46,473 nucleotides of DNA. Source: Fidelibacterota bacterium. Its GTDB lineage: Bacteria > Fidelibacterota > UBA2242. Of the stretch, positions 2,087-19,810 are shown in pieces (the first letter of the stretch is position 1; every line of letters begins with the position of its first letter). Position numbers and translations under genes: made by a program. The DNA is taken from NCBI GenBank assembly GCA_030603165.1, contig JAUVYH010000002.1:1-46473 (forward strand), in the 5' to 3' direction. Below the pieces are notes generated by a model. The model saw nothing but the letters and a program-made list of their open reading frames with translations. It was not told the DNA's origin and searched no databases.

Positions 2087-3243
2087 AAACGATTTACCTC
2101 GATCATGCCGCTACAACGGCAACTGATCCGGAAGTATTGGAAGCCATGCTGCCTTATTTTCACGAACACTACGGAAACCCCTCAAGCATTTATTCAATAA
2201 GCCGTATCTCGAAAAACACCATCGAAAATGCGCGTGAAATAGTCGCAAACGCATTGGGTGCGAATTCAAAAGAAATCGTCTTTACCAGTAGCGGCAGCGA
2301 AAGCGACAACTTTGCCATCAAAGGCGTCGCCCTCGCCAAACAACAACAAGGCAATCATATCATCACATCTTCAATTGAACATCATGCAGTCTTATATACC
2401 TGTAAATTTTTAGAAAAAAATGGATTCAATGTCACCTATTTACCGGTTGATAACAATGGTATCATTAAATTGGACGAATTGGAAAAAGCAATCACTCCGC
2501 AGACAATTTTAATTACGATCATGCACGCCAATAATGAAATCGGCACGATTCAGCCGATCAGCCAGATTGGCGAGATCGCCCGAAAACACGGAATCACCTT
2601 CCATACCGACGCCGTCCAGACCTTCGGTCACATACCCGTCAATGTTGATGACCTGAATATTGATATGCTCAGAATTTCCGGTCATAAATTTTACGGACCA
2701 AAAGGTGTCGGCGCATTATATATACGAAAAGGGATTAAAATCACGCCCCTGATCCACGGTGGCGATCAGGAGCGACGCCGACGGGCTTCTACCGAAAACG
2801 TGCCCGGCATTATTGGGTTGGGAAAAGCAGTTGAGATCGCCGGAAAAGTCATGGAAAATGAAGCGACCCGGCAGACCAAATTGCGGAATGAATTCATTCG
2901 CACAATTTTAGATAATATCGATGACGCCCGTCTAAATGGACACTCCTCCCTCCGATTACCCAATAACGTCAATATTTCCTTTGAGGGTATCGAAGGCGAA
3001 TCAATCCTGCTGAACCTGGACATGGAAGGAATCGCCGCTTCAACCGGTTCGGCCTGCAGTTCGTCCAACCTGGAACCCAGTCATGTCCTGCTATCGATTG
3101 GGCTGTCTCACGAATTTGCACACGGCTCTGTGCGGTTCTCAATGGGAAAACACACAACGAAAGACGATCTGGATTATGTTGTCGAAGTGCTGCCCGGCAT
3201 AGTCAAAAAATTGCGCGCCATGTCGCCACTTTATAAAAAATAA
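2083..3243 (+). CDS. nifS: cysteine desulfurase (NifS/IscS, class V aminotransferase)
   Basis: MKTIYLDHAATT...HYGNPSS...SGHKFYGPKG (PLP lysine)...STGSACSS (active-site Cys loop). 386 aa, NifS-type length. Confidence 0.92.
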   Translation: MKTIYLDHAATTATDPEVLEAMLPYFHEHYGNPSSIYSISRISKNTIENAREIVANALGANSKEIVFTSSGSESDNFAIKGVALAKQQQGNHIITSSIEHHAVLYTCKFLEKNGFNVTYLPVDNNGIIKLDELEKAITPQTILITIMHANNEIGTIQPISQIGEIARKHGITFHTDAVQTFGHIPVNVDDLNIDMLRISGHKFYGPKGVGALYIRKGIKITPLIHGGDQERRRRASTENVPGIIGLGKAVEIAGKVMENEATRQTKLRNEFIRTILDNIDDARLNGHSSLRLPNNVNISFEGIEGESILLNLDMEGIAASTGSACSSSNLEPSHVLLSIGLSHEFAHGSVRFSMGKHTTKDDLDYVVEVLPGIVKKLRAMSPLYKK

Positions 3244-3255
3244 GGAACTGAATTA

Positions 3256-3642
3256 ATGGAACAGTACAGCGAAAAAGTAATGGATCACTTCCGTAATCCA
3301 CGCAATGTGGGTGAAATTGAAAATCCCGATGGAATCGGACATGTGGGAAATCCGATGTGCGGTGATGTCATGGAGATGTATATTAAAGTAAAAGAGAACA
3401 TAATTGTTGACGCCAAATTCAAAACTTTCGGGTGTGGCGCCGCTATCGCCACCAGTTCAATGGCGACTGAGCTCGTTATAGGTAAAACAATCGATGAAGT
3501 CCGGCAGATTACCAATAAAGTCGTTGCCGAAGCTTTGGATGGCTTGCCACCCATAAAAATGCACTGTTCAAACCTTGCGGAAGAAGCCCTGGAAGCCGCG
3601 ATAAAAGACTATAAAGAAAAACTCGCTCACAAAAAGGCGTGA
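3256..3642 (+). CDS. nifU: Fe-S cluster assembly scaffold (IscU/NifU N-terminal type)
   Basis: 128 aa with the conserved scaffold cysteines in NPMCGD, FGCGAAIA and MHCSNLAEEAL. Confidence 0.92.
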   Translation: MEQYSEKVMDHFRNPRNVGEIENPDGIGHVGNPMCGDVMEMYIKVKENIIVDAKFKTFGCGAAIATSSMATELVIGKTIDEVRQITNKVVAEALDGLPPIKMHCSNLAEEALEAAIKDYKEKLAHKKA

Positions 3643-3993
3643 TTTTCCGGATTCAAATTCCACTATAGCAAAAACCTTTAAAACGTACAGGACATATTGT
3701 ATCGCTTATCAATTATAATTTCCCCAAAATATCCCTGACCCAAATTGAAACCGCTGCTGCAACCTGATAAAATTCCATTGCCATATTGTGATTTTTTATA
3801 TAATATCACCACGAATACGGTTTACGGAAAATCCGGGGATTTTATGAGTTTAAAAATGGCTATATATGATAAGTTTTGAAAAAATGGATGGATATGGACA
3901 TTTATTGCTAAATTGAGTGATAACTTGTTATCTATATTATTTCAAGGATTAGTTCTAAAAATGAAAGTGCATTACAATTAAGGAAACAAAAAT

Positions 3994-6900
3994 ATGATCA
4001 ACACGGATTTAACTTTCATTACCAACGAAGAGCAGCAAAACCTTAAAACGAGATTTCGTATCTTGATAAAAGACACAAAATTTTTTGACTGCCTGGTCGG
4101 GTATTTTTATACAAGCGGTTTTTATGCTGTTTATAAATCATTAGAAAATACAGAAAATATTAGAATTCTGATTGGCATAAGCACAAGCAAACAGACCTAT
4201 GATTCATTAAAAAAAGCAAATCAAAACCCGCAGCAGGCGCTGCAATTTTCCCACGCGGAAACAAAACATGAATATTCAGAACTTGTGGAAAAGGAGCTGG
4301 AAGATTCAGAAGATAAGCGGGAAGTCGAAGAAGGTGTTGAAAAATTTATTGAATGGATTCGCGGTAAGAAACTGGAAATCAGAGCCTACCCTTCTCAAAA
4401 TATTCATGCAAAACTTTACATTATGACATTCGCTGAAGGCGACCGCGATATCGGCAGAATTATTACCGGTTCCAGCAATTTTACCCAATCAGGCTTAGTA
4501 GATAATCTTGAATTTAATGTCGAACTGAAAAATCGTGCTGACTATGAATTTGCCAAAAATAAATTTGAGGAGTTATGGCAGAATTCCGTAGATGTCAGCG
4601 AAAAATATATTCAGACAATTCAGGAAAAAACATGGCTAAACCAAAACATTACGCCTTATCAGCTTTACCTGAAGTTTCTCTACGAATATTTCAAGGACGA
4701 ATTAAGCCAGACTGACGAAGTATTTATCAAATATTTACCGCGAGAATTTAAAAAACTGGAATATCAGAAGCAGGCGGTATTAAATGCGAAAAAAATTCTT
4801 GAGGGATATGGCGGTGTTTTTATTTCTGACGTCGTTGGGCTTGGGAAAACTTACATCTCAGCCATGCTTGCCGGGCAGATTGACGGGAGAACTCTGGTGA
4901 TAGCGCCCCCCGTTTTACTTGATAAAAGGAATCCCGGATCATGGCCAAATATCTTTTCAGATTTCAGAGTGCCGGCTGATTTTGAATCGAGAGGAAAATT
5001 AGATCATATTCTTCGTAGAGGAACGGAAAAATACAAAAATATTATCATCGACGAAGCTCACCGTTTTAGAACGGAAACGAATATTACCTATGAGAAATTA
5101 GCCGAGATTTGCCGCGGAAAAAGAGTGATTTTAGTAACCGCCACCCCTTATAATAATTCCCCAAAAGACATTTTAAGCCAGATAAAGCTGTTCCAAAAAG
5201 CCAGGAAAAGCACCATTCCCAATTTGCCCGACCTTGAAACTTTCTTCAATGGATTGGAAAAGAAAATAAAAAATCTGGACAGACAACGGGATTATTCCGA
5301 ATACATAAAAACCGTCAAAGAGAACGCCAAAGAGATCCGCGAAAAAGTGCTTAAATTGTTAATGGTGCGTCGTACTAGAACCGAAATCATAAAACATTTT
5401 GAAAATGATTTTAAAAAACAAAACTTGAAGTTCCCTGATATTGATAATCCGGAACCGCTCTTTTACCAGCTTAATGACGAGGAAGATAGAATCTTTAATA
5501 CAACCATCGAATTAATTTCTAAAAAATTCACCTACGCCCGTTACACGCCTCTGTTACCACAGTATTACAAAGGTTCAATAGATCAGCTGGAGGAGCAATC
5601 CCAGAAGAACATGGGCAAATTCATGAAAATTCTGCTAGTCAAAAGGCTGGAAAGCAGTTTCTTCGCGTTTAGAAACTCCATTGATCGGTTCATCTACTCT
5701 TATGAGATGTTCATTAAGGAATTTAACAATGGCAATGTTTATGTAAGCAAAAAATATTCCCGGAAGATCTTTGAGTATCTGGAAAATGACGATGACAAAG
5801 CTATTCAAAGGTTAATTGATGAGGGCAAAGCTGTAAAGTTCGCAAACAATGAATTTAAGAATGATTTCATTATTGATCTAAAAAACGACCTTGAAATACT
5901 GAAAACCACCAGATTCCTCTGGCAAAAAGTTCAACGAGACCCAAAACTGCTTAAATTTTTGGATGAACTTACAAACCAAAAAATCCTGAAGCAAAGCAAA
6001 CTCATAATTTTTACTGAGTCAAAAGAAACAGCCGAATACCTGTTTAAAAACATAAATGACAAATTTCCCGGTACCGCACTCTGTTTTACAGGTGGATCGG
6101 GAGAGGCAACCCGCGATAAGGTTATTGACAATTTTGACGCTAACGTACGCCACCCCAGAGATGATTACCGCATTCTGGTCTCTACAGAGGTTTTGTCCGA
6201 GGGGGTGAACCTGCACCGTTCCAATGTTGTGGTAAATTATGACATTCCCTGGAATCCCACACGGATGATGCAGCGAGTCGGACGTATCAATCGCGTAGAT
6301 ACCAAATTTGATAAAATTTACACCTTTAATTTCTTTCCCACCAAACAATCAAATGATGAGATAAAACTAAAAGAAGCCGCAGAAGCAAAAATCAACGCAT
6401 TTTTAACTCTGTTAGGCGGCGATGCTGCGTTGTTAACCGAAGGGGAACCGGTCGCCTCACACGAACTCTTTAACCGTTTAATTTCCAAACAAACCCTGAC
6501 CGGCGATGATGGAGCCGAAGAAAGCGAACTGAAATATCTACACATTATTAAAGATATCCGCGACAAGAATCCGGATCTGTTTGAGAAAATCAAACGCCTG
6601 CCGAAAAAAGCACGCACAGCAAAACAAAACCATGCTGTTGCCGGAGCGCTTATCACCTATTTTCGCCGCGGGAAACTGCAGAAGTTCTTCCTGTCTGCCG
6701 TGACAACGGCACAGGCAGGCATAGCGCAGGTAAAGCAAACAGCCGAAGAACTGGATTTTATATCAGCGGCAAAACTGCTTGAAAGCCGGCCGGATGAAAA
6801 AAAGAAAAAACTTCCAAGCGAGATGTATGACCTTTTAGACAGCAACAAGGAAGCTTTTATTATCGCTACCACCGAAGAAATGGTTGAACCTCAAAAAAGA

Positions 6901-7224
6901 AGAGGACGCGACAGCGCCGCCAATATTCTGCGCATTTTAAAGGCAACCATGAAAAATACGCAGAAACTCACCGAAAACCAGGAGTTTTACCTTAATAAAG
7001 TATTGACTCAGCTTGAGGAAGGCGGACTGCCCAAACAAACAACCAAAGAAACACTCAAAGCATTAAATGAGCTAAATCAAGATTTGATGAATCCGTTTAA
7101 AGTACTGGCTACACTACAAAACCATATTCCCGAACGTCTTTTAAAAGGACATTACGCAGAGCAAAATCCGGCGGTATTCGGAAAACGTGAAGTCATACTC
7201 TCACTCTATCTAGCAGGAGAATAA
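3994..7224 (+). CDS. PLD-like (single HKD) nuclease domain fused to an SNF2-family helicase/translocase
   Basis: N-terminal HKD motif NIHAKLYIM...GSSNFTQSGL (His codon at 4405-4407). SF2/SNF2 motifs follow: GLGKTY (I), IIIDEAHRFR (II, DEAH), LVTATPYNN (III), LVSTEVLSEGVNL (V) and QRVGRINR (VI). 1076 aa. Confidence 0.85.
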   Translation: MINTDLTFITNEEQQNLKTRFRILIKDTKFFDCLVGYFYTSGFYAVYKSLENTENIRILIGISTSKQTYDSLKKANQNPQQALQFSHAETKHEYSELVEKELEDSEDKREVEEGVEKFIEWIRGKKLEIRAYPSQNIHAKLYIMTFAEGDRDIGRIITGSSNFTQSGLVDNLEFNVELKNRADYEFAKNKFEELWQNSVDVSEKYIQTIQEKTWLNQNITPYQLYLKFLYEYFKDELSQTDEVFIKYLPREFKKLEYQKQAVLNAKKILEGYGGVFISDVVGLGKTYISAMLAGQIDGRTLVIAPPVLLDKRNPGSWPNIFSDFRVPADFESRGKLDHILRRGTEKYKNIIIDEAHRFRTETNITYEKLAEICRGKRVILVTATPYNNSPKDILSQIKLFQKARKSTIPNLPDLETFFNGLEKKIKNLDRQRDYSEYIKTVKENAKEIREKVLKLLMVRRTRTEIIKHFENDFKKQNLKFPDIDNPEPLFYQLNDEEDRIFNTTIELISKKFTYARYTPLLPQYYKGSIDQLEEQSQKNMGKFMKILLVKRLESSFFAFRNSIDRFIYSYEMFIKEFNNGNVYVSKKYSRKIFEYLENDDDKAIQRLIDEGKAVKFANNEFKNDFIIDLKNDLEILKTTRFLWQKVQRDPKLLKFLDELTNQKILKQSKLIIFTESKETAEYLFKNINDKFPGTALCFTGGSGEATRDKVIDNFDANVRHPRDDYRILVSTEVLSEGVNLHRSNVVVNYDIPWNPTRMMQRVGRINRVDTKFDKIYTFNFFPTKQSNDEIKLKEAAEAKINAFLTLLGGDAALLTEGEPVASHELFNRLISKQTLTGDDGAEESELKYLHIIKDIRDKNPDLFEKIKRLPKKARTAKQNHAVAGALITYFRRGKLQKFFLSAVTTAQAGIAQVKQTAEELDFISAAKLLESRPDEKKKKLPSEMYDLLDSNKEAFIIATTEEMVEPQKRRGRDSAANILRILKATMKNTQKLTENQEFYLNKVLTQLEEGGLPKQTTKETLKALNELNQDLMNPFKVLATLQNHIPERLLKGHYAEQNPAVFGKREVILSLYLAGE

Positions 7225-7227
7225 TAT

Positions 7228-8586
7228 ATGACGAATAAAGAATCTCAAACAGTTGAATATAAACAAAACTGGCGAAATGACTGCCTTAAAGCCGTTTCAG
7301 CGTTTGCAAACAGCCGTGGCGGCGTTTTATATATTGGATTGGATGACCACGGAAAATCATTCGGTTTAAAAAATGTCAAAAAATTGCTTGAGGATATTCC
7401 AAATACCATCAGAAATAAACTCGGAATTATACCTTCAGTTGAACTGAACAGAAAAAGTAGTAAGGATATAATCAAAATCACAGTTGTACCGTCATCTGTA
7501 CCCATTTCCTACAATGGCAAATATTATCTCAGGAGCGGAAGCACTGTGCAGGAACTACAGGGAAAAGAGCTGGCTGATTTTTTGATAAGAAAAACCGGAA
7601 TAGAATGGGATGACGCTTTTGAAGATAGCGGGAATTGGGATTTTTTGGAAGAATCCACCATTGAAGATTTTAAACGTTTTGCTGTTGATCGTATTCCGTC
7701 AATTGTTCGTGAAAAAGATTTTGCCACAATTTTAAAAAAATTAAATCTTTTCGAAAATCAGCATTTGAAACGAGCGGCAATTATGCTTTTTGGCAGAGAA
7801 GTACAACGTTCTTACAGCCACGCTTGTGTAAAAATCGGGCGATTCTTAAGCGATACCGATATTCAAACAACCGATATTGTCAAAGGTAATCTGTTTCAGC
7901 AATTGGAAACCACATTGGAAATTCTCCGGACCAAATATTTACAGAGCAATATAAAATTTGAAGGCATCCATCGCCGTGATATTCTTGAATATCCTTATGA
8001 AGCCTTGCGGGAGGCAATCATAAATGCACTCATTCATCGGGATTACCGAAGTTTTTCTCAAATTCAAATTAGAGTCTATCCCGATAAACTCATCATTATG
8101 AATGCCGGTAGTTTGCCGCCTGAGGTGCCGGTGGAATCGCTGAAAACCGAGCATCTGTCCAGACCGAGAAATAAGCTGTTAGCAGAAACTTTTTACTATG
8201 CCGGTTTTATTGAAGCCTGGGGACGCGGCACATTGAAAATCGTGGAAAAATGTGTCGAGCAGAGATTGCCGGAACCTGATTTTAAAGAAGAAAACGGCGT
8301 GATGACTGTTACCTTTTATAAGGATAAATGGACTGAGAAAAAATTAAAGAAACTCGGACTGAATGAAAGACAGATAAAAGCAGTGATGTATGTAAAGGAA
8401 AATGTCAGAATTACAAACAGTGAGTATCAAGGATTATTTGAGGTATCGAAGCGAACCGCTACCAATGATTTAGATGAATTGGTGCAAAAAGGCCTGTTCG
8501 AGAAAACAGGTACACGAGGTAGAGGGACATTTTATGAAATTAAAAAGGGCAATAATTGGGCAAATGGGGCAAAAAAAGGGCAATAA
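7228..8586 (+). CDS. AlbA_2 (Schlafen-like) domain / HATPase_c_4 / C-terminal wHTH protein (COG2865-type, often annotated as RecG-like ATP-binding protein)
   Basis: N-terminus ESQTVEYKQNW...AFANSRGGVLYIGLDDHG is the AlbA_2 signature. EALREAIINALIHRDYRS...IRVYPDKLIIMNAGSLP is the HATPase_c_4 signature. The C-terminal LNERQIKAVMYVKENVRITNSEY...TATNDLDELVQKGL is a wHTH. It starts 3 nt after the helicase stop. Confidence 0.8.
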   Translation: MTNKESQTVEYKQNWRNDCLKAVSAFANSRGGVLYIGLDDHGKSFGLKNVKKLLEDIPNTIRNKLGIIPSVELNRKSSKDIIKITVVPSSVPISYNGKYYLRSGSTVQELQGKELADFLIRKTGIEWDDAFEDSGNWDFLEESTIEDFKRFAVDRIPSIVREKDFATILKKLNLFENQHLKRAAIMLFGREVQRSYSHACVKIGRFLSDTDIQTTDIVKGNLFQQLETTLEILRTKYLQSNIKFEGIHRRDILEYPYEALREAIINALIHRDYRSFSQIQIRVYPDKLIIMNAGSLPPEVPVESLKTEHLSRPRNKLLAETFYYAGFIEAWGRGTLKIVEKCVEQRLPEPDFKEENGVMTVTFYKDKWTEKKLKKLGLNERQIKAVMYVKENVRITNSEYQGLFEVSKRTATNDLDELVQKGLFEKTGTRGRGTFYEIKKGNNWANGAKKGQ

Positions 8587-8618
8587 TGGGTCAAATGAGT
8601 CAAAAACGAGGCAAAAAT
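8547..8618 (+). repeat. degenerate short word repeat (GGGCAAA-like units) spanning the 3' end and stop of the AlbA_2 gene
   Basis: gggcaataattgggcaaatggggcaaaaaaagggcaataatgggtcaaatgagtcaaaaacgaggcaaaaat. The tail encodes ...KGNNWANGAKKGQ*. Confidence 0.6.
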
Positions 8619-8745
8619 ACTGAAGACAAAAAGCGATCTGTTATCAGTTAAATTTTGGATAAATGGTGGTTTCCCGGCGGATATGTCGGATAAATGTCGG
8701 ATATCGGAAACGGACTGATTCAGATACAGAACACAAACTGCTTAA

Positions 8746-8853
8746 AGTAATGAATTGACTGAAGAATTTTTAATAAAGATCGGGTTGAATGAAAGGCAAA
8801 TGAAAGCCGTATTATATTTTAAAGGGGTGCTAAAGGGGCGAAAGGGGCGCTAA
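8746..8853 (+). pseudogene. orphan, internally deleted fragment of a COG2865-type C-terminal wHTH module
   Basis: My own translation gives SNELTEEFLIKIGLNERQMKAVLYFKGVLKGRKGR*. It repeats the W(T/S)E..L.K.GLNERQ.KAV.Y segment of the upstream gene and then runs straight into an AAAGGGGCG word-repeat tail (8821-8856). Confidence 0.55.
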
Positions 8854-8856
8854 AAA

Positions 8857-9120
8857 GGCGTGATGACCGTGACTTTTTATAAGGATAAATGGAGCGAGGA
8901 AAACCTCAGGAAATTGGATTTGAATGAAAGACAGATTAAGGCTGTGTTGTATGTTACGGAAAACGGGAAAATAACGAATAACGCCTATAGAGAATTGATA
9001 AAAGATATTAGTAGAATAACAGCAACCCGAGATTTAACTAACCTGGTTGAAAAAGGCATTTTAAAGATGGTTGGTATTGGTAAAAGGCAGGTGCATTATA
9101 TTATGAATGATTCAAAATAA
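8857..9120 (+). pseudogene. orphan 3' module (wHTH domain) paralogous to the C-terminus of the 7228-8586 gene
   Basis: GVMTVTFYKDKWSEENLRKLDLNERQIKAVLYVTENGKITNNAY...TATRDLTNLVEKGIL aligns residue for residue with GVMTVTFYKDKWTEKKLKKLGLNERQIKAVMYVKENVRITNSEY...TATNDLDELVQKGLF. By hand alignment the first ~100 nt are roughly four-fifths identical to 8296-8400. It has no N-terminal domains or obvious RBS. Confidence 0.65.
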
Positions 9121-9348
9121 ATGCAACGATGATGCAAAAGATGCAAAAATGATGCAAAAATGAAGAACCTATTGATAAAATGTCACGACAGGCATAGGGG
9201 CAAAATATGAACTTAAAAATTTATTGGCCGATAATTGGCCGAATTGGCCGCTCAAAGACCAATAATTGCACATGCCCTGCACAATTATTTGCACAACACT
9301 GTTAAAGGGCTTAAAGGGCTCATAAAGGGCTCACAAACGGCTCAAAGG
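9121..9348 (+). repeat. series of different short word repeats, decayed low-complexity tail-like sequence
   Basis: GATGCAAAA-like x4 (9121-9165), ATTGGCCG x3 (9223-9250), TGCACA x3 (9267-9295) and TAAAGGGCT-like x4 (9301-9348). One frame reads ...IIAHALHNYLHNTVKGLKGLIKGSQTAQR. Confidence 0.6.
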
Positions 9349-9356
9349 AATAAAAC

Positions 9357-12300
9357 ATGGATAAACAACAAGCGCAAACAATCATCAAAACAACGTTTGA
9401 AAATCCTTTTGATAAGGACAGGTTTACCGGTTTTGCAAAAAATCTTCTTAATCAAATTGACGATTCTCACTTTGCATATTATGGTAAATTTATACCGGAC
9501 GCCTATAAACCATTTATTAGCAGATATGAACGGATTGGTAAATATAGTGATAGTGAAAACCGAATTGATATTCTTGTTGTTTATCTAAATAAGGAAACAT
9601 CAATTGAGCGCGCCCGAACCAGACAGCGAAATTTTATTGCAGGTTACCTTGAAGGTAAATATGGCAGTGATGTAAGCAAAGATGCCGCTCTCGTGGCGTT
9701 TGTTTCTCCGAACGAAGAGGACTGGCGCTTTTCTCTTGTCAAAATGGATTACAAGTTCGAACAAACCGAATCTGGAAAAATGAAGGTAAAAGAGGAATTT
9801 ACTCCTGCCAGACGCTGGTCATTTCTGGTCGGTAAAAACGAATCCAGCCATACAGCCCAGAGCCGGCTGGTTCCAATCCTTACAGACGACCGGCACAACC
9901 CTACCCTTGCTCAACTTGAAGAAGCCTTTAACATTGAAAAAGTTACCAAAGAATTCTTTGAAAAATACCGCGAGCTCTTTTTGCGGACAAAAGAAACACT
10001 TGATGAAATCGTTACACAAGACTCAAAAATCAAAGCCGATTTCGAAATCAAAGGCGTTGACGCCGTTAATTTTGCCAAAAAACTCCTGGGACAGATCGTC
10101 TTTCTCTACTTCCTCCAGAAAAAGGGCTGGTTCGGCGTTGAGCGCGACGCCGAATGGGGAACGGGCACTAAACATTTTTTACGTGAACTCTTTTCCCGAA
10201 GGGATGAATTCCCAAAAGGCGGCAACGACAAACATACTAATTTCTTTAACGATATTTTGGAGCCGCTTTTTTATGAGGCGCTACGGATTGACCGCCGCCA
10301 CGATGACGACTATTACAAATATTTTAACAGCAAAATCCCATTTCTCAATGGCGGACTCTTTGATCCCATAAATAATTACGACTGGGTGCATACCGATATT
10401 CTTCTGCCCAATGAACTGTTTTCCAACAGGACTAAAACCAAAGAAGGCGATACGGGAAACGGCATCCTGGACGTCTTTGACCGCTATAATTTCACCGTCA
10501 AAGAAGACGAGCCGCTGGAAAAGGAAGTCGCGGTTGACCCGGAAATGCTGGGAAAAGTATTTGAAAATCTGTTGGCAGTAAAAGACCGCAAATCCAAAGG
10601 CACATACTACACTCCCCGCGAAATCGTTCACTATATGTGCCAGCAAAGTTTAATAAACTATCTTCATACAGAATTTAATAAAGGCATAACTTCGTATCAA
10701 AAGATTGGCGATACTCAAACAGACGCTTTTGGCAATGAAGTAAAAACAGGTCAGTTTGATTTGATTGCCGAACTCAAATCAAGTCCGCAGATATCAAAAG
10801 AAGACCTTGAAACCCTGATCAAATATGGCGAGCAGGTGAGCGAAAACGAAGCAATTTTTTTAGAAAAAGAACAAAAGATTAAAAAAGGGGAGCAAAAGAC
10901 TACCAGTATAAAAACGAAACTGCCTGACACCATCAGAAAAAACGCCGAACTGATTGATGGTAAACTGGCGGATATTACTGTCTGTGATCCGGCGGTAGGT
11001 TCCGGCGCCTTTCCCGTAGGCATGATGCACGAGATCGTGAAGACCAGAAATGTACTGACGACTTTTCTTAACCCCCCTCCCCTTGATAAGTGGGGAATGA
11101 AAAGTGGGTTAAGAACCATTTACCGGTTTAAGCGAGACTGCATTGAAAAATCGCTCTACGGCGTGGATATCGACCCCGGCGCGGTGGAGATTGCCAAACT
11201 TCGGCTGTGGCTGTCGCTAGTGGTGGACGAGGAAGATATCAAACGAATTAAGCCTTTGCCAAACCTGGATTATAAAATTGTCTGCGGCAATTCGCTATTG
11301 GGAGTTAAAAGGGATTTATTGAACGATTACTTATTTAAAGAATTGGAACAACTAAAACCGCTCTACTTTAATGAAACCAATCCCACCAAAAAACAGGAAT
11401 ACAAACAGCAGATTGATGAACTCATCAGCCGGATAACCGACGGACATAAGGAATTTGATTTTGAAGTCTATTTTTCGGAGGTGTTTCATGAGAAGAAGGG
11501 CTTTGATGTGGTGATTGCCAATCCACCGTACGTAAATATAGAGCGCCTGGATGACAAATTGAAACAGTATATCTTTTTACATTATCAAACCTGTTTAGGG
11601 CGTACTGATATCTATACTGCTTTTATCGAAAATTCTCTTGCCCTAATTAAAGATAGCGGTTTGCTGACGTTTATTATCCCGTATGCATTTACAAACCAGA
11701 AATATGGCACAAAATTGCGCAAGCATTTGATAGACAATTTCTTCATATCTGAAATTCTGGATACAAGCGATTATTTTGTTTTTGAAACAGCAAATGTGAA
11801 AAACATTGTACTCCGTGTTCAGAAAACCAAAAATGAAAGAAACACAACTATAAAAAGAGCTGAATCCGCGGATGATTTTCAGCAATGTAGTTTGTCAACC
11901 TTCTTTTTAGATCAGCAGCAATTTTTAGATTTGAAAGATTATCGTTTCGAGACAAAATATCTATCTGAAGCCCGTTCTATGCGGGGGAAAATATTATTGA
12001 ATACATTACCACTTGAAGATATTTGCTTTGTTGCTTATGGCGCTAGACTTAATCACAAAACCAAAAAGATAGGAAAAGATCATTATATAAGCGAAAGTTA
12101 CAAATCAACCTTCAAGCCATATTTGGAAGGAAAGAATATAGAGCGCTATTATTTTGCTCAATATGGCTGGCTTAGTTATCACCCAAAAGAACACTACAAT
12201 CCAATGTTCGCAGAACTTTTTGAGAATCCGAAACTAGTTACAATCAACGTGGTTAAAGATGAGTTACGTTTTGCCTTTGACAATAAAAACTTTTATAACA

Positions 12301-12728
12301 GCCATACAGTAATCAACTGTGTGAAATGGCACTTTCTGGTAAATGCAAAACATATATCGGTTAAAAGGGGAATTACAAAAAAGCGTATCACAAACAGCAG
12401 TAATTATGATTATAAATATCTTCTGGCAATTTTAAACTCAAAGTTGATGAGTTGGTATTTTATGTGTTTCTTATCAGAAAAACTACATTTCTATCCAAAT
12501 GATGCTAAAAGCATGCCTATTAAGACAATTTCTACTAAGGATCAGAATCCATTTACTAAACTTGTCGATCGCATATTTGTCATCACCAAAGCCGAAGATT
12601 ATCTACAAAACCCGCAAAAACAGGCGCAGGTGAAGGCGCTGGAGCGTGAGATCGACCGGATGGTGTATAAGCTGTATGGACTTACAAAAGACGAAATTGC
12701 CATCATAGAAAATTCAGGAAGGAAATAA
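9357..12728 (+). CDS. large Eco57I/PglX-like N6-adenine DNA methyltransferase with C-terminal target-recognition region (Type IIG/IIL-like architecture)
   Basis: AdoMet motif I VCDPAVGSGAFP. Catalytic motif IV NPPY at 11520-11531 (VIANPPYV). TYYTPREIV lies upstream, as in gamma-class N6A MTases. The C-terminal tail is REIDRMVYKLYGLTKDEIAIIE. 1123 aa. Confidence 0.85.
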   Translation: MDKQQAQTIIKTTFENPFDKDRFTGFAKNLLNQIDDSHFAYYGKFIPDAYKPFISRYERIGKYSDSENRIDILVVYLNKETSIERARTRQRNFIAGYLEGKYGSDVSKDAALVAFVSPNEEDWRFSLVKMDYKFEQTESGKMKVKEEFTPARRWSFLVGKNESSHTAQSRLVPILTDDRHNPTLAQLEEAFNIEKVTKEFFEKYRELFLRTKETLDEIVTQDSKIKADFEIKGVDAVNFAKKLLGQIVFLYFLQKKGWFGVERDAEWGTGTKHFLRELFSRRDEFPKGGNDKHTNFFNDILEPLFYEALRIDRRHDDDYYKYFNSKIPFLNGGLFDPINNYDWVHTDILLPNELFSNRTKTKEGDTGNGILDVFDRYNFTVKEDEPLEKEVAVDPEMLGKVFENLLAVKDRKSKGTYYTPREIVHYMCQQSLINYLHTEFNKGITSYQKIGDTQTDAFGNEVKTGQFDLIAELKSSPQISKEDLETLIKYGEQVSENEAIFLEKEQKIKKGEQKTTSIKTKLPDTIRKNAELIDGKLADITVCDPAVGSGAFPVGMMHEIVKTRNVLTTFLNPPPLDKWGMKSGLRTIYRFKRDCIEKSLYGVDIDPGAVEIAKLRLWLSLVVDEEDIKRIKPLPNLDYKIVCGNSLLGVKRDLLNDYLFKELEQLKPLYFNETNPTKKQEYKQQIDELISRITDGHKEFDFEVYFSEVFHEKKGFDVVIANPPYVNIERLDDKLKQYIFLHYQTCLGRTDIYTAFIENSLALIKDSGLLTFIIPYAFTNQKYGTKLRKHLIDNFFISEILDTSDYFVFETANVKNIVLRVQKTKNERNTTIKRAESADDFQQCSLSTFFLDQQQFLDLKDYRFETKYLSEARSMRGKILLNTLPLEDICFVAYGARLNHKTKKIGKDHYISESYKSTFKPYLEGKNIERYYFAQYGWLSYHPKEHYNPMFAELFENPKLVTINVVKDELRFAFDNKNFYNSHTVINCVKWHFLVNAKHISVKRGITKKRITNSSNYDYKYLLAILNSKLMSWYFMCFLSEKLHFYPNDAKSMPIKTISTKDQNPFTKLVDRIFVITKAEDYLQNPQKQAQVKALEREIDRMVYKLYGLTKDEIAIIENSGRK

Positions 12729-13750
12729 TGAAAAATATAGCAGGAAAAGAATACATTAAATTTTTGAATGAAATCAAATCGCGTATTGTTGCATCACGTA
12801 TTCAGGCAATTAGGTCGGTCAATAAAGAACTCATAAATCTATACTGGGATATTGGTAAACGCATCGTAGAGCGCCAGAAGAAATTTGGTTGGGGTAAGAG
12901 AGTTGTGGAACAATTATCCCGCGACCTTATTAATGAATATGCTAATTCTAAAGGATTTTCCCGGGATAATCTTTGGCGGATGAGAATGTTTTATCTTGAA
13001 TATAAAGAAGAAAAACTGGCACAACTTGTGCCAGAATTACCCTGGGGACATAACATTCTCATTATGCAGAAAGTAAAAAACATGAAAGAGCGGGAATATT
13101 ACATAACATCAGGCATTAAATTCGGCTGGTCAAGGAATGTGCTTCTCAATCAGATAAAAGCCAATGCGTATCTATTGAGCCAAAGAAAGAAAACCCACAA
13201 TTTTCCGAGAGCCCTACCTGTTCATATTGCCGAGCAGGCGGATGAATCCATAAAAAGCGTTTATAGCCTTGATTTTCTTGGCATTACCAAACCGGTATTG
13301 GAGCGGGAGCTTGAAAAACGGCTTGTAGAGAAGATCAAACAGTTTATCCTGGAGCTTGGTTACGGGTTTTCATTTATCGGCAATCAATACCGGCTAACGC
13401 TGGAGAACAACAAATATTTCGTTGATCTTCTTTTTTTCAACCGCAACCTGAAATGCCTCGTGGCAGTTGAGCTTAAGATCGGCAAGTTTGAACCAGAATA
13501 TGCCGGTAAAATGGATTTTTACTTAAATCTATTAGATGAACAAGTGAAGTTGAAAGATGAGAATCCGTCAATAGGCATTATTCTATGCGCAGATAAGGAT
13601 AACATTGTGGTTGAGTATGCCTTACGCAGTGTCAAAAAGCCCGTAGGTGTTGCTGAATACTATCTCACAAAGAAGCTGCCCGAATATTTGGTGGGGAAAC
13701 TTCCTGATGCAAACGCATTGAAATTACCGATACAAAAGGGATTGAAATAA
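12728..13750 (+). CDS. DUF1016 / YhcG-family PD-(D/E)xK nuclease-fold protein
   Basis: NKELINLYWDIGKRI...RNLWRMRMFY...FSFIGNQYRL...YFVDLLFFNRNLKCLVAVELKIGKF (D...ELK core) is characteristic of DUF1016. The start ATG shares one nt with the MTase TAA (TAATG). Confidence 0.8.
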   Translation: MKNIAGKEYIKFLNEIKSRIVASRIQAIRSVNKELINLYWDIGKRIVERQKKFGWGKRVVEQLSRDLINEYANSKGFSRDNLWRMRMFYLEYKEEKLAQLVPELPWGHNILIMQKVKNMKEREYYITSGIKFGWSRNVLLNQIKANAYLLSQRKKTHNFPRALPVHIAEQADESIKSVYSLDFLGITKPVLERELEKRLVEKIKQFILELGYGFSFIGNQYRLTLENNKYFVDLLFFNRNLKCLVAVELKIGKFEPEYAGKMDFYLNLLDEQVKLKDENPSIGIILCADKDNIVVEYALRSVKKPVGVAEYYLTKKLPEYLVGKLPDANALKLPIQKGLK

Positions 13751-13861
13751 AAGATATGGACAGGAGTCAAAGAATATGAACGCCAAATTGACCATCTTGT
13801 TTATAAACTCTACGGTCTGACCAAGGAAGAAATCTGAATCGTAGAGAGCGAGGCAAAATAA
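13751..13861 (+). pseudogene. remnant of a second methyltransferase C-terminal tail
   Basis: My own translation gives KIWTGVKEYERQIDHLVYKLYGLTKEEI*IVESEAK*. It parallels the MTase tail LEREIDRMVYKLYGLTKDEIAIIENSGRK* at 12639-12728. An in-frame TGA replaces the Ala codon. Confidence 0.6.
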
Positions 13862-16388: not shown

Positions 16389-17570
16389 ATGAAAAAGCGC
16401 CTTTTATTTAATAAATTAAAAAACCATCTCAAGAAAAAACAAATCAGCCTTATTGTTGGAGCCAGGCAAACCGGAAAAACTACGCTTATGCAACAATTAA
16501 TGAAAGAGTTGAAAAAGGATCGAAATCAGATTTTCTTTCTTACTCTTGAGGATCCCGATATTTTAAAAGTACTTAATGAACATCCGGCTAAGTTGTTTCT
16601 GGTAATTCCGCCTATTGATCGTACCAGACAAACGATTATTTTTATTGATGAGATTCAATATCTTGACATTCCTTCTAATTTTTTAAAATATCATTACGAC
16701 AAATACCATGATAAAATCAAATTTATTGTCAGTGGTTCCTCAAGTTTTTATATAGATAAAAAATTTACGGACTCTCTGGCCGGCAGAAAACGATTATTCA
16801 AACTACCGACCTTAAGTTTTGAAGAAATGCTTATTTTTAAAGATAGAACAGAATTAACGCCTTTCATAAATAAAAAAATTCCACCAATCTTCAGAGATGA
16901 AATATACACTCTCTTACAGGAATATATCATTTTTGGCGGATATCCTGAAGTCATTTTGGAACCCGATATTGAAGAGAAAAAACATATATTAGCAGAAATT
17001 GCGAACTCTTACGTAAAGAAAGACGCCCTTGAATCTAATCTAAAACATCCAAATGCGTATTTGACTCTACTTCAAATATATTCCGAAAGAGTCGGCGGCA
17101 TCGTCAGTTATAATAATATAGCGGGTGATTTCAGCATGAATCATCTTACGATTAATGCCTATACTGAACTGATGCAGAAATCTTTTCACATTAGTCTTAT
17201 AAAGCCATTTTACCGTAAGTTGAGTAAAGAGCTGAGAAAATCACCGAAAGTCTATTTTAACGACCTCGGTTTAAGAAATCATTTTTTGCGTAATTTCAAC
17301 GCCCTTTTTTTTAGAGAAGACAGGGGTAATCTATTTGAAAATTACATCTTTCGTAGATTACTAGACAAATATGACGAAATGGATATTAAATACTGGCGAA
17401 CTCAAAATAAACACGAGGTAGATTTTATCATTCAAAACCAGAAAGCCTATGAAACAAAATTTTCCCAAGAACAATTTTATCCTTATAAATATCATTATTT
17501 TACAGATAAATACCCTGATATTCCCCTGAATCTGATACACTATGAAAATGCGCTGGAAACAGACTTGTAA
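16389..17570 (+). CDS. AAA-family ATPase with DUF4143 C-terminal domain (COG1373-type)
   Basis: Walker A GARQTGKTTL and Walker B IIFIDEIQY. The C-terminal WRTQNKHEVDFI block is typical of the DUF4143 nuclease-fold-like tail. Confidence 0.75.
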   Translation: MKKRLLFNKLKNHLKKKQISLIVGARQTGKTTLMQQLMKELKKDRNQIFFLTLEDPDILKVLNEHPAKLFLVIPPIDRTRQTIIFIDEIQYLDIPSNFLKYHYDKYHDKIKFIVSGSSSFYIDKKFTDSLAGRKRLFKLPTLSFEEMLIFKDRTELTPFINKKIPPIFRDEIYTLLQEYIIFGGYPEVILEPDIEEKKHILAEIANSYVKKDALESNLKHPNAYLTLLQIYSERVGGIVSYNNIAGDFSMNHLTINAYTELMQKSFHISLIKPFYRKLSKELRKSPKVYFNDLGLRNHFLRNFNALFFREDRGNLFENYIFRRLLDKYDEMDIKYWRTQNKHEVDFIIQNQKAYETKFSQEQFYPYKYHYFTDKYPDIPLNLIHYENALETDL

Positions 17571-17611: not shown

Positions 17612-19810
17612 ATGAAACCAATCTACTTAGACCATAACGCCAGCACACCTTTATTACCGGAAGTCATTAACGCCATGATGCCGTTCCTGAAAAACCACTA
17701 CGGGAATCCTTCCAGCAGTCACTATTTCGGACAGGAAGCCAAAAAAACAATTGAGCATTCCCGGGAACAATTGGCGGCACTGCTAAACTGTTCCGCCGAT
17801 GAGATTATCTTCACCAGCGGCGGCAGCGAATCAAACAATATGGCGGTTAAAGGCATCGCCAGCCTATATAATTCGGGACATATTATCACCAGCGCTGTGG
17901 AACATCCCGCCATCCTGGAAGTGTGTCGATTTCTTGAGAATAATGGATATAGCGTCACCTATCTCCCGGTTGATGAATATGGTTTGGTAGATACCAAATC
18001 GCTGGTTCGCGCCATCCGCTTAGATACGATCCTTATCACGATTATACTGGCGAATAACGAAGTTGGCACTATTCAGCCGATCAGGGAAATTGCCCAAATA
18101 GCTCATGAACGGAATATCCTGATGCATACCGATGCAGCTCAGGCAGTGGGAAAAATCCATGTGGATATTCGGGAATTAGAGGTCGATTTACTATCTGTTG
18201 CCGGTCATAAAATGAATGCGCCAAAAGGCATTGGCGCTCTATATATTAAAACCGGAACTAAGATACAACCACTCATTCATGGCGCCGGTCACGAGCGGGG
18301 CTTGCGTCCGGGCACGGAAAATGTGCTGGAAATTGTTGGATTAGGAACCGCTGCGGAAGTTTTTCACTCGAATGAAAAAACAATTCTTGCCGAACAAAAA
18401 GCCCGGGGCGATCAATTCTGGAACGAATTGAAAGAAGCAATACCGGAAATCGAATTAAATGGTCATCCGGAACAGAAACTCACCAACACAATTAACACCT
18501 ATTTCCCCGGTATCGACGCCAATACGCTTTTATCCGATCTTCCGGACATTGCCGCATCCGCCGGAGCCGCCTGTCACGCCGACAGCATGGAACCATCCCA
18601 TGTTTTGAAGGCAATGGGATTTAGTGACGAACGAATTCTGGGCAGCATCCGCTTCTCGGTGGGCAGAACCACAACAGCGCAGGATGTCAGCGCTGCCGTT
18701 AGAAAAATATTCGAAGCTTACCGTAACCTTACTGAAAATATTCTGAGAGAAGTCACATTTACCGATATTTCCGATATTCGTCTCACTCAATATACTCACG
18801 GATTGGGATGCGCCTGTAAGATCCGACCGCAGCATTTGGAAGAAATCCTGAAAAAAATTCAGACCATACCTTCCGAATACACACAGGTCGGTTTTGAAAC
18901 CTCCGATGATGCGGCGGTTTTTCGCTTAACCGATGATATTTCCTTAGTTTCAACCGTAGATTTTTTCACGCCGATCGTGGATGATCCCTTTGATTTTGGG
19001 CAAATTGCCGCGGCAAATTCACTCAGCGATATCTACGCCATGGGCGGAAAACCCATTTTTGCATTAAACATTGCGGCATTCCCTGAAAAGCGACTCCCCA
19101 TGAAAGTGCTGGAGCGTATTCTTGAAGGCGCCCGGCATATTGCCAATATTGCAGGAATCCCAATCCTCGGTGGTCACACCATCGAAGACAACGAGCCCAA
19201 GTTCGGTCTTGCAGTTACCGGGACAGTTCATCCTGACGCAATCTGGCGCAATGTCGGATCGCAACCCGGTGACGCACTCATTCTTACCAAACCGATCGGG
19301 ACCGGCATTTTATCGACAGCATTGAAAAGGGGTCTGCTGGACAACGCAGCCCGGGATACCATTGTTGCTATTATGAGCGAGCTGAACGCCGCTGCTGCTG
19401 ATATTATCAGAGAATTTCCGGTTCACGCCTGTACCGATGTTACCGGATTCGGACTGTTGGGACACCTCTATGAAATGCTTACGGATGGTGATATATCCGC
19501 CCGGATTATTAGTTCGGAAGTACCGGTCATTCCCAACACAATCGAAATGGTTCGCAGAAACGTCATCCCCGGAGGCACAGACGCAAATATGAATTATCTT
19601 AAAGACCGGGTCGCCTGGGATGATAAAATCAGCTCCATATTCCGGGTAATACTTTGTGACGCTCAGACTTCAGGCGGATTATTGGTTGCGACGCCGGAAC
19701 CCAACGCCGCTGAGATGGTTAAACGACTAAAGGAATCCGGAATAACAAGCGCATCTGTTATCGGTAAAATCGAAAAAGCCGGAAAATATAAAATATTTAT
19801 TGTTCCTTAA
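17612..19810 (+). CDS. selD: fusion protein: NifS-like cysteine desulfurase/selenocysteine lyase (N-terminal) with selenide, water dikinase SelD (C-terminal)
   Basis: Residues 1 to ~380 parallel the NifS at 2083 (HYGNPSS, AGHKMNAPKG, SAGAACH). From about nt 18767 the product IRLTQYTHGLGCACKI matches the SelD N-terminus (E. coli IRLTQYSHGAGCGCKI), with Cys rather than Sec. DDAAVF and VDFFTPIVDDPFDFGQIAAANSLSDIYAMGG follow. Confidence 0.88.
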   Translation: MKPIYLDHNASTPLLPEVINAMMPFLKNHYGNPSSSHYFGQEAKKTIEHSREQLAALLNCSADEIIFTSGGSESNNMAVKGIASLYNSGHIITSAVEHPAILEVCRFLENNGYSVTYLPVDEYGLVDTKSLVRAIRLDTILITIILANNEVGTIQPIREIAQIAHERNILMHTDAAQAVGKIHVDIRELEVDLLSVAGHKMNAPKGIGALYIKTGTKIQPLIHGAGHERGLRPGTENVLEIVGLGTAAEVFHSNEKTILAEQKARGDQFWNELKEAIPEIELNGHPEQKLTNTINTYFPGIDANTLLSDLPDIAASAGAACHADSMEPSHVLKAMGFSDERILGSIRFSVGRTTTAQDVSAAVRKIFEAYRNLTENILREVTFTDISDIRLTQYTHGLGCACKIRPQHLEEILKKIQTIPSEYTQVGFETSDDAAVFRLTDDISLVSTVDFFTPIVDDPFDFGQIAAANSLSDIYAMGGKPIFALNIAAFPEKRLPMKVLERILEGARHIANIAGIPILGGHTIEDNEPKFGLAVTGTVHPDAIWRNVGSQPGDALILTKPIGTGILSTALKRGLLDNAARDTIVAIMSELNAAAADIIREFPVHACTDVTGFGLLGHLYEMLTDGDISARIISSEVPVIPNTIEMVRRNVIPGGTDANMNYLKDRVAWDDKISSIFRVILCDAQTSGGLLVATPEPNAAEMVKRLKESGITSASVIGKIEKAGKYKIFIVP

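Follow-up and report, generated by a model that had tools for sequence, protein, structure and literature searches.

A conserved PLD-SNF2 and Eco57I-like methyltransferase gene pair is probably a two-subunit ATP-dependent restriction-modification system

Four co-directional genes of a Fidelibacterota bacterium encode a phospholipase D (PLD)-SNF2 fusion protein (p1), a Schlafen-like AlbA_2 protein (p2), a large Eco57I-like DNA methyltransferase (p3), and a DUF1016 protein (p4). They occupy positions 3994 to 13750 of the stretch that we analyzed, positions 1 to 46,473 of the forward strand of contig JAUVYH010000002.1, which we call the window. The original prediction, made from the letters of this DNA, had joined all four genes into a single undescribed, methylation-linked defense module. 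We find instead that only p1 and p3 recur together in other genomes. These two genes probably form a functional unit of their own, a two-gene ATP-dependent restriction-modification (R-M) system that resembles a Type ISP enzyme split in two, or a Type III res/mod pair, and that is equipped with a PLD nuclease.

The evidence for a two-gene unit comes from the neighbors of p1 in other genomes. A scan of one genome per species gave 497 confirmed loci with p1 homologs; 80 of them, from more than 20 phyla and with 60 to 83% identity, were retained, and the four window proteins were compared with these loci by tblastn. Sixty-five of the loci extend more than 1.5 kb downstream of p1, and in 64 of these a p3 homolog is the next gene after p1, on the same strand; p1 and p3 are directly adjacent in most loci, and the gap between them is shorter than 120 nucleotides (nt) in 37. 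In the exception (L011; related loci are given here by such numbers), p3 is reduced to a TaqI_C fragment. In the reverse test, made on long contigs, a PLD-SNF2 gene stood immediately upstream of the p3 N-terminal homolog in 6 of 6 cases. Clustering of all flanking open reading frames (ORFs) of the 80 loci revealed no third recurrent gene; the commonest family, present in 5 loci, is uvrA or a split-off piece of the target recognition domain (TRD) of the methylase. Given this two-way linkage and the lack of any other recurrent neighbor, we conclude that the conserved unit consists of p1 and p3. The link between these two genes, which formed part of the original prediction, is thus real and strongly conserved, and the co-occurrence across genomes expected of the whole module holds for them. 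However, p4 lies beside the pair in 0 of 80 loci, and only ~11 to 14% of loci have an AlbA_2 gene like p2, whether counted in the p1-p3 interval (7 of 65) or next to p1 (11 of 80). The boundaries of the four-gene unit were therefore drawn wrongly, since p2 and p4 are facultative.

The p1 family is large and widely spread. At least 7118 homologs were found, the best 120 of which are full length and 76 to 92% identical to p1; those with a name among these 120 belong to Marinimicrobia, Spirochaetes, Deltaproteobacteria, Zixibacteria, Parcubacteria, Flavobacteriaceae, Acidobacteria, and Nitrospirae. An exact look-up returned no record of the p1 sequence itself. In a plasmid collection, the relatives of p1 are all distant, with at most 35% identity. 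One such distant branch, in Parabacteroides, has the same p1-p3 order at 31% identity for p1 and 25% for p3, the p3 alignment spanning residue 104 to the end, and an AlbA_2-type gene lies upstream of this pair; at the Thermus and Meiothermus loci of the same collection, the arrangement of the methylase differs. The flanks share no recurrent integrase, transposase, or terminal repeat and show just patchy similarity over the last 30 to 100 nt before p1. As a separate observation, p1 keeps its 60 to 84% identity over 1076 residues in more than 20 phyla, including candidate phyla radiation (CPR)/Patescibacteria, with no recurrent mobility gene. Small helix-turn-helix (HTH)- or CopG-type genes closely precede p1 or lie in the p1-p3 interval in L084/L085 (4592-4795), L089 (2596-2805), L090 (2210-2569), and L098 (11116-11268), and could encode controller proteins comparable to MtsR of MANTIS.

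The first core gene, p1 (3994-7224, + strand), is the proposed restriction subunit. Its product of 1076 residues matches PLDc_2, SNF2-rel_dom, and Helicase_C in Pfam and divides into a PLD nuclease with a single HKD motif (residues 1-215), a SNF2-type superfamily 2 (SF2) ATPase (residues ~250-830), and a conserved C-terminal region (residues 831-1076) that has no family assignment. The HKD residues H138, K140, and G159-S-S-N162, the Walker A GxGKT at 282-286 (G282 and G284-K-T286), D353-E354, and the motif VI arginines are identical in 76 of 76 homologs, and H356 is identical in 75 of 76. Because the HKD, Walker A, and DEAH residues are invariant or nearly so, we conclude that the nuclease and the motor are both under selection. 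There is one HKD per p1 chain; an active PLD site requires two chains, as in Nuc and BfiI and in the structure of MtsD, the PLD effector of MANTIS (preprint 10.64898/2026.09.23.753747). The C-terminal 246 residues have a median identity of 61% and are without a match among Pfam families and PDB sequences. The best PADLOC match of p1 is an orphan model, 'C3a139, HKD+Snf2', at 152 bits, while partial PADLOC matches to DrmD, BrxH, HmaA, DpdE, and ZorD are confined to the helicase core; in Pfam, RE_NgoFVII matches weakly, and ResIII covers only the generic motor region.

In five loci, p1 is intact where p3 is deleted (L011) or interrupted (L004, L005, L018, and L027). Such toleration of p1 without p3 is expected if p1 needs p3 for targeting. 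A Type IV role for p1, in which it would depend on modified DNA as SauUSI does, was considered and rejected, since no reader domain matched and an enzyme of this kind, obligately paired with an active methylase, would turn against its own cell. Some p1 homologs are longer by ~220 residues (1290 to 1322 residues in all) and show a weak in-frame match to Y1_Tnp, an IS200/IS605-type transposase family (L095-L097, with p1 at 2125-5997; P0066; L063; and L065). In L063 and L065, the insertion measures 650 to 680 nt and lies near p1 residue ~880. The extra residues may represent an inserted mobile element or a gain of a domain inside the helicase-nuclease.

The second core gene, p3 (9357-12728, + strand; 1123 residues), is the proposed modification and specificity subunit and matches Eco57I, N6_Mtase, and TaqI_C in Pfam. 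The protein starts with a family-specific N-terminal domain, here called domain A (residues 1-185), which is followed by a helical domain (residues ~186-392) with the MmeI/PglX-like motifs LLGQIVFLYFLQKKGW and IPFLNGGLFDP, by a gamma-class N6-adenine methyltransferase (motif X at ~394-430, DPAVGSG at ~544, and NPPY at 722), and by a TaqI_C-type TRD (residues ~860-1123). Each residue of NPPY is kept in 51 to 53 of 55 homologs. Across loci, median identity falls from 72% in the helical domain and 63% in domain A to 52% in the methyltransferase and 30% in the TRD, which was detectable in 20 loci only. With a variable TRD and with the N-terminal and helical domains best conserved, p3 behaves like a specificity subunit.

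The TRD is also the part of p3 that is found detached. Several loci encode the methylase in two parts, a piece of ~825 to 945 residues and a separate TaqI_C ORF of 180 to 325 residues, and in others extra TRD-like fragments follow the methylase; loci with one or the other feature are L083 (10603-11211), L089 (8867-9406), L041, L047, L079, and L032 (18376-18509). Programmed inversions have been reported for such methylases (PMC9881135). Together, the split or extra TRDs and the published inversions suggest that TRD cassettes are switched in part of the p3 family.

Domain A is confined to the p3 methylase family. A search of 1.84 billion representatives placed it in 840 clusters at 50% identity, and the best 150 matches all lie at or near the N terminus of proteins of ~1000 to 1340 residues (the longest has 1337) or of fragments of such proteins. 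Profile searches found no Pfam match at E values up to 10 and no PDB sequence match. In an AlphaFold model with a predicted local distance difference test (pLDDT) score of 84, the elements run alpha-alpha-beta-beta-beta-alpha and continue with a beta-meander and a helix. Foldseek returned nothing significant for this model in the PDB (best template modeling [TM] score, 0.31) or in BFVD, and the nuclease domains of MmeI, BpuSI, and Type ISP enzymes were not among the matches. Matches to DHH pyrophosphatases (TM, 0.31) and to viral proteins labeled 'PD-(D/E)XK' (TM, ~0.2; root mean square deviation, >17 Å) were set aside as noise. The invariant residues of the domain are mostly arginines (R87, R91, R124, and R153), joined by E162 and H165. 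There is no conserved (D/E)xK among the homologs; the best acidic candidate, D71, precedes an invariant leucine and is replaced by methionine or leucine in 3 of 55. Across loci, the identity of domain A correlates with that of the p1 C-terminal region at a Spearman coefficient of 0.67, compared with 0.45 to 0.55 for other parts of p1.

From these features, we infer a division of labor between the two proteins. The TaqI_C-type TRD of p3 would read a short, probably asymmetric DNA site, and the gamma-class methyltransferase with its NPPY motif would methylate one adenine of this site, so that host DNA is marked as self. At an unmodified site, p3 would recruit or activate p1, probably through a contact between domain A and the p1 C-terminal region. 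The SNF2 motor of p1 would then travel along double-stranded DNA, and p1 would cut by means of a composite PLD site, which only two paired single-HKD domains could form, be it within a permanent dimer or on the encounter of two complexes. Three elements of this scheme, namely the hemimethylation of an asymmetric site, the recruitment of p1 via domain A, and cleavage by a PLD site of two p1 chains, are drawn by analogy with Type ISP, Type III, and MANTIS systems. In the pair, a methylase that bears the specificity has a translocase-nuclease as its near-constant gene neighbor, and the motifs for methylation, translocation, and nuclease activity are all intact, as in ATP-dependent R-M systems in a wide sense of the term.

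Read together, p1 and p3 present the parts of a Type ISP enzyme: a nuclease, an SF2 translocase of double-stranded DNA, a coupler, a gamma-class N6-adenine methyltransferase, and a TRD. As outlined in one account of Type ISP enzymes, the domains follow the same order there within one chain (PMC4666363), and these enzymes are described as hemimethylating asymmetric sites and cutting after two translocating enzymes converge. In contrast, the pair studied here is encoded by two genes with the break after the motor, has a single-HKD PLD in place of an Mrr-type PD-(D/E)xK nuclease, uses a SNF2-like motor, and has domain A in addition. Type III systems (mod/res, such as EcoP15I) likewise are two-gene operons in which a TRD-bearing methyltransferase loads a helicase-nuclease, with methylation of one strand and ATP-dependent cleavage. 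However, the methylase here is gamma-class and Eco57I-like, with motif I before NPPY, rather than a beta-class Mod; the nuclease is a PLD at the N terminus, in contrast to the C-terminal PD-(D/E)xK domain of Res; and the res-like gene comes first.

A further relative in logic is MANTIS, also known as Gao_RL, Hma, or BREX-related type 2 (MtsA-D). There, too, the effector combines an N-terminal PLD with an SF2 ATPase, and specificity comes from the TRD of a separate N6-adenine methyltransferase. The dimeric PLD+SF2 effector MtsD forms one composite PLD site that is directed by the methyltransferase TRD, and restriction prefers inverted site pairs (preprint 10.64898/2026.09.23.753747); the MANTIS-type methyltransferase hemimethylates asymmetric sites (preprint 10.64898/2026.09.23.753747; PMC12839542). 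Our pair differs in having neither a DUF499 MtsA nor a DUF3780-type MtsB, in having an Eco57I-like rather than a DUF1156-type methylase, and in consisting of two genes versus four. No DUF499 AAA+ ATPase is present in the window, and none is recurrent in the related loci. In a 2026 survey of BREX-related systems, all HKD+Swi2/Snf2 effectors described have DUF499 and DUF1156 partners, and Eco57I and Type IIG proteins go unmentioned (PMC12839542). The likeness to Hma that had been raised for this locus does not hold: the HmaA match to p1, at 81 bits, covers Helicase_C only, and a DUF499 protein is missing. Coupling of a PLD nuclease to an SF2 helicase-like motor is also found in SauUSI (Type IV), which has been named a structural relative of MtsD (preprint 10.64898/2026.09.23.753747), and in the ATP-dependent Type II enzymes CglI and NgoAVII. 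SauUSI, however, is autonomous, has its own reader domain, and targets modified DNA, and CglI and NgoAVII have separate methylases and recognize DNA through a domain of the PLD subunit, whereas here recognition lies on the methylase.

The other two genes of the locus occupy positions that hold different genes elsewhere. The product of p2 (7228-8586, + strand; 452 residues) is of the COG2865 type, with SLFN_AlbA_2 and HATPase_c_4 matches in Pfam and a weak C-terminal winged helix-turn-helix (wHTH), and we regard the gene as facultative cargo or an accessory. The slot between p1 and p3 is taken by AlbA_2/HATPase_c_4 (7 loci), Bro-N (5 loci and L011), AbiEii (2), Fic (2), or TumE (2), and further by ORF6N, RhuM, HEPN, HepT, and NYN genes, which makes at least 10 alternative genes including p2. 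Similar toxin-type and regulator-type genes are known inside Type I R-M operons. Members of the p2 family share 70 to 93% identity. Four of these homologs were looked up: two, in L092 and L095, are in the p1-p3 slot, and a third, in L098, is just upstream of the pair. The fourth, in L100, belongs to a different island with AAA_13 and TIR genes and with neither p1 nor p3, at the same chromosomal site as L098. That site lies downstream of secG, where the p2-type AlbA_2 gene is followed by p1-p3 in L098 and by HTH/Peptidase_M78, AAA_13, and TIR genes in L100; the AlbA_2 gene seems to have stayed in place at the island edge while the rest of the island was exchanged. As far as sequence comparison goes, we read p2 as a self-contained accessory that prefers the p1-p3 system rather than as a required subunit.

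The last gene, p4 (12728-13750, + strand; 340 residues), encodes a DUF1016/YhcG PD-(D/E)xK protein (DUF1016_N and YhcG_C in Pfam; PDC-S02 in PADLOC) and is likewise regarded as cargo. The nearest DUF1016 case is 4 kb downstream of the pair in L083, and a table of Milman et al. lists one related methylase with an upstream DUF1016 gene (PMC9881135). Two related contigs, L032 and L092, carry the same island at the same site as the window, and neither has DUF1016 there. L092, which is ~86% identical to the window in nucleotide sequence through p1 and p2, has the order p1-p2-p3-TPR, the tetratricopeptide repeat (TPR) gene encoding 615 residues and overlapping the p3 stop by 4 nt; L032, at ~79% nucleotide identity, has the order p1-(p2 fragment)-p3-231 residues-TPR. 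Homology of L092 and L032 to the window resumes at 13787 and 13800, respectively, after p4. Directly downstream of p4 in the window, on the + strand, a relic of a p3-type C-terminal tail (13751-13837) reads KEYERQIDHLVYKLYGLTKEEI up to a stop in translation, as compared with the tail ALEREIDRMVYKLYGLTKDEI of p3 itself, and a counterpart of this relic follows the 615-residue TPR gene in L092 (13242-13359) and L032 (from 20487). The relic marks where the methylase gene formerly ended, and p4 therefore falls within the footprint of the R-M operon. Because the tail relic is present and homology resumes past p4, we conclude that the position after p3 is a second cargo slot within an old methylase footprint. 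On the sequence comparison, DUF1016 and the TPR gene are alternative occupants of this slot in the isc-nadC lineage, and recombination at the conserved methylase tail probably gave rise to the slot. The roles of p2 and p4 are likely to be independent or back-up defense, or regulation, and not those of required parts.

The rival explanations can be weighed against this body of evidence. The most probable of them, although we consider it unlikely, is that p3 is an autonomous Type IIG enzyme with a divergent N-terminal nuclease and that p1 is a separate or auxiliary effector, such as a processive degrader of p3-nicked DNA or a second line of defense. Several observations weigh in this direction and against a two-subunit system. 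The PADLOC model REase_MTase_IIG (PDLC03596) covers the whole of p3 with a score of 1060 bits, and its label, 'Type IIG restriction enzyme-methyltransferase', indicates that curators treat the family as self-contained. In size and in the layout of the helical domain, gamma-class methyltransferase, and TRD within one polypeptide, p3 resembles the Type IIG enzymes Eco57I, MmeI, BpuSI, and Cj0031/CjeFV, and its domain order and the MmeI/PglX-like motifs of its helical domain are those of MmeI/Eco57I-type enzymes. Cj0031-type enzymes restrict phage alone (PMC4889913), and methylases beside PLD+SNF genes have been called Cj0031 homologs by Milman et al. (PMC9881135). The modeled domain A could be a cryptic or divergent nuclease, given an alpha-beta-beta-beta-alpha-beta order of elements in its core, the conserved acidic and basic residues E58, D71, D122, E162, H165, and K108, and the very weak viral matches that are labeled PD-(D/E)xK; the order of its elements would fit a degenerate fold of the restriction endonuclease type, and a fold search without a match is no proof that such a fold is lacking. 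Nor is any p1-p3 fusion protein present among the best 150 domain A matches, which leaves a contact between the two proteins without Rosetta-stone support; the tracking of identity between domain A and the p1 C-terminal region is suggestive and is confounded by common operon history; and the interrupted p3 genes, which come from metagenome bins, may be assembly errors, which weakens the argument from p1 without p3. On the other hand, a two-way, near-obligate linkage to p1 is unexpected for a self-sufficient enzyme, and the p3 gene is almost never found without its PLD-SNF2 partner. Furthermore, the N terminus of p3 has no recognizable PD-(D/E)xK, domain A lacks a (D/E)xK and varies at D71, the PDB fold search gave no significant match and did not match the nucleases of MmeI, BpuSI, or Type ISP enzymes, and the nuclease and ATPase motifs of p1 are invariant or nearly so.

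Still less probable is a reduced BREX- or DISARM-like system of the DrmD-DrmMI type, in which the pair would block phage in a nonclassical manner and need further partners in the host or at a distance. Class 1 DISARM shares with the pair a SNF2 ATPase, a large N6-adenine methyltransferase, and a PLD nuclease, and its gene order is SNF2 followed by the methyltransferase, as in p1-p3. Profile matches to DrmD and DrmMI are weak, however: p1 partially matches DrmD in PADLOC (120 bits) and DISARM_DrmD in NCBIfam at 135.7 bits, far under the cutoff of 610 (DrmD_b, 64 against 950), and p3, which partially matches DrmMI and PglX, reaches 103.8 bits with BREX_1_MTaseX, for which the cutoff is 500. None of the four proteins passed any model of NCBIfam 20. 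PADLOC found no DrmB in the locus genes, the neighbors, and ten other large window ORFs, and its sole DrmA match is a Helicase_C overlap in p1; no PglZ or BrxC was found in the locus genes and the ten other ORFs. The original prediction had likewise seen no DrmA/DrmB and no PglZ/BrxC, and our scans agree; none of DrmA, DrmB, BrxC, and PglZ recurs in the 80 loci. DISARM differs, in addition, in that its PLD is not fused to the SNF2 protein as it is here, and DrmA and DrmB (DUF1998) belong to it. An intact and invariant HKD nuclease favors cleavage over a nonclassical block. We consider it very improbable that all four genes make up one integrated, novel methylation-linked defense machine. The genes are co-directional, p1 and p2 as well as p3 and p4 are in close contact, the p2 family is often found beside p1-p3 (three of four look-ups, several shared contigs, and the AlbA_2 gene at the Parabacteroides pair), and DUF1016 genes occur in L083 and next to a related methylase (PMC9881135), all of which would fit such a machine. 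Yet p4 is adjacent in none of the 80 related loci, with a TPR gene in its stead in the same-site relatives; p2 is absent from ~86 to 89% of loci and is a mere fragment in the close relative L032; the p2 slot elsewhere holds at least 9 unrelated families; the p2 homolog of L100 has neither p1 nor p3 for company; and p1 and p3 mostly adjoin each other directly. A two-gene ATP-dependent R-M system thus remains the reading that we prefer.

The arrangement of the locus itself was as first described. The coordinates and sizes of the four co-directional ORFs were exact, Pfam recovered the domains claimed for all four proteins, and the motifs H138xK, DEAH353, NPPY722, and ELK248 were all found. The 3-nt gap between p1 and p2 reads TAA tat ATG, and p3 and p4 overlap by 1 nt in TAATG. 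The tight packing ascribed to the module applies to these two junctions but not to p2 and p3, which are 770 nt of noncoding DNA apart (8587-9356; assigned to no strand). This spacer contains relics of the p2 wHTH and short phased repeats. The relics comprise a p2 wHTH fragment, LNERQMKAVLYFKG, at ~8780-8826 and an 86-residue ORF (8860-9120) that begins at the p2 wHTH boundary 'VTFYKDKW' and has weak SoFic-C/HTH matches. Tandem Repeats Finder and the sequence together gave five short words, each present 3 to 6 times at intervals of 9 to 11 nt: a GGGCAA-type repeat that crosses the p2 stop (8542-8618), GGGGCG (8820-8860), ATGCAA (9106-9163), TTGGCC (9223-9250), and AGGGCT (9302-9344). The order of the spacer segments differs between the window and its relative L092.

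The island lies between isc and nadC, as predicted, with iscR (Rrf2), iscS, and iscU on the left and a 192-residue ORF and nadC on the right. No empty isc-nadC site was seen, both same-site relatives (L092 and L032) being occupied. A leader of 351 nt (3643-3993) precedes p1 and contains no small HTH/CopG-type ORF, and a scan for promoters and terminators gave no more matches than expected by chance. On the far side of nadC, 2.6 kb past the island, a gene at 16389-17570 encodes a 393-residue AAA_14 + DUF4143 ATPase that matches the PADLOC candidate PDC-S01 at 307 bits and is a further defense candidate. The 732-residue protein encoded at 17612-19810 fits the DndA/SspA models with its N-terminal half at ~500 bits, which identifies that half as a cysteine desulfurase of the IscS type. 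The large ORFs scanned included no dndB-E or sspB-D genes, and the protein is probably a housekeeping fusion that provides a second desulfurase near the isc operon.

In the literature, the p1-p3 pair has not been described as a system, and the sole mention that we found is a table in Milman et al. (PMC9881135); SNF2 and Eco57I genes of streptococcal integrative and conjugative elements proved to be unrelated to the pair. The claim that the locus is undescribed holds insofar as the pair matches no named multigene system in PADLOC 2.0 or NCBIfam 20, but p3 alone is filed as 'Type IIG' by PADLOC. PADLOC does not recognize the pair, and for the whole locus a pipeline would report 'RM Type IIG' and a DUF1016 candidate and would ignore p1. 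The name of the PADLOC model suggests that REBASE, too, lists the p3-type methylase as a putative Type IIG enzyme. Our verdict is that the pair represents an uncharacterized variant of ATP-dependent R-M systems and not a new category or principle of immunity. More tentatively, and with a little less than an even chance of being right, we propose that the pair of a PLD-SNF2 protein and a domain A/Eco57I-like methylase constitutes a distinct, very widespread, and unnamed class of ATP-dependent R-M systems, Type ISP-like but split and using PLD chemistry, which stand-alone Type IIG calls have masked. In this proposal, the two fixed cargo slots would serve as a platform from which back-up defense genes of the toxin and Schlafen types spread across phyla, and the AlbA_2 lineage of p2 may be a semi-dedicated partner that is guarded or triggered by the R-M complex, as PrrC is held by EcoprrI.

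Should the proposal be correct, thousands of genes now annotated as 'helicase-related protein' and as 'Type IIG / Eco57I methylase / PglX' would be the two subunits of one R-M class. Since defense-system finders do not recognize this class, Type IIG counts would be inflated, and a major restriction type would have been missed in uncultured phyla, including CPR bacteria. The pair would also be a minimal natural methylase-guided PLD-motor nuclease, with two proteins where MANTIS has four, and thus a simpler model for learning what assembles a single-HKD nuclease and licenses it on unmodified DNA. The defined insertion slots offer a clean system in which to study cargo of the abortive-infection type and the way that R-M operons carry it and perhaps control it. 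For specialists, the appeal of the pair lies in its ubiquity, its minimal composition, and its consequences for annotation.

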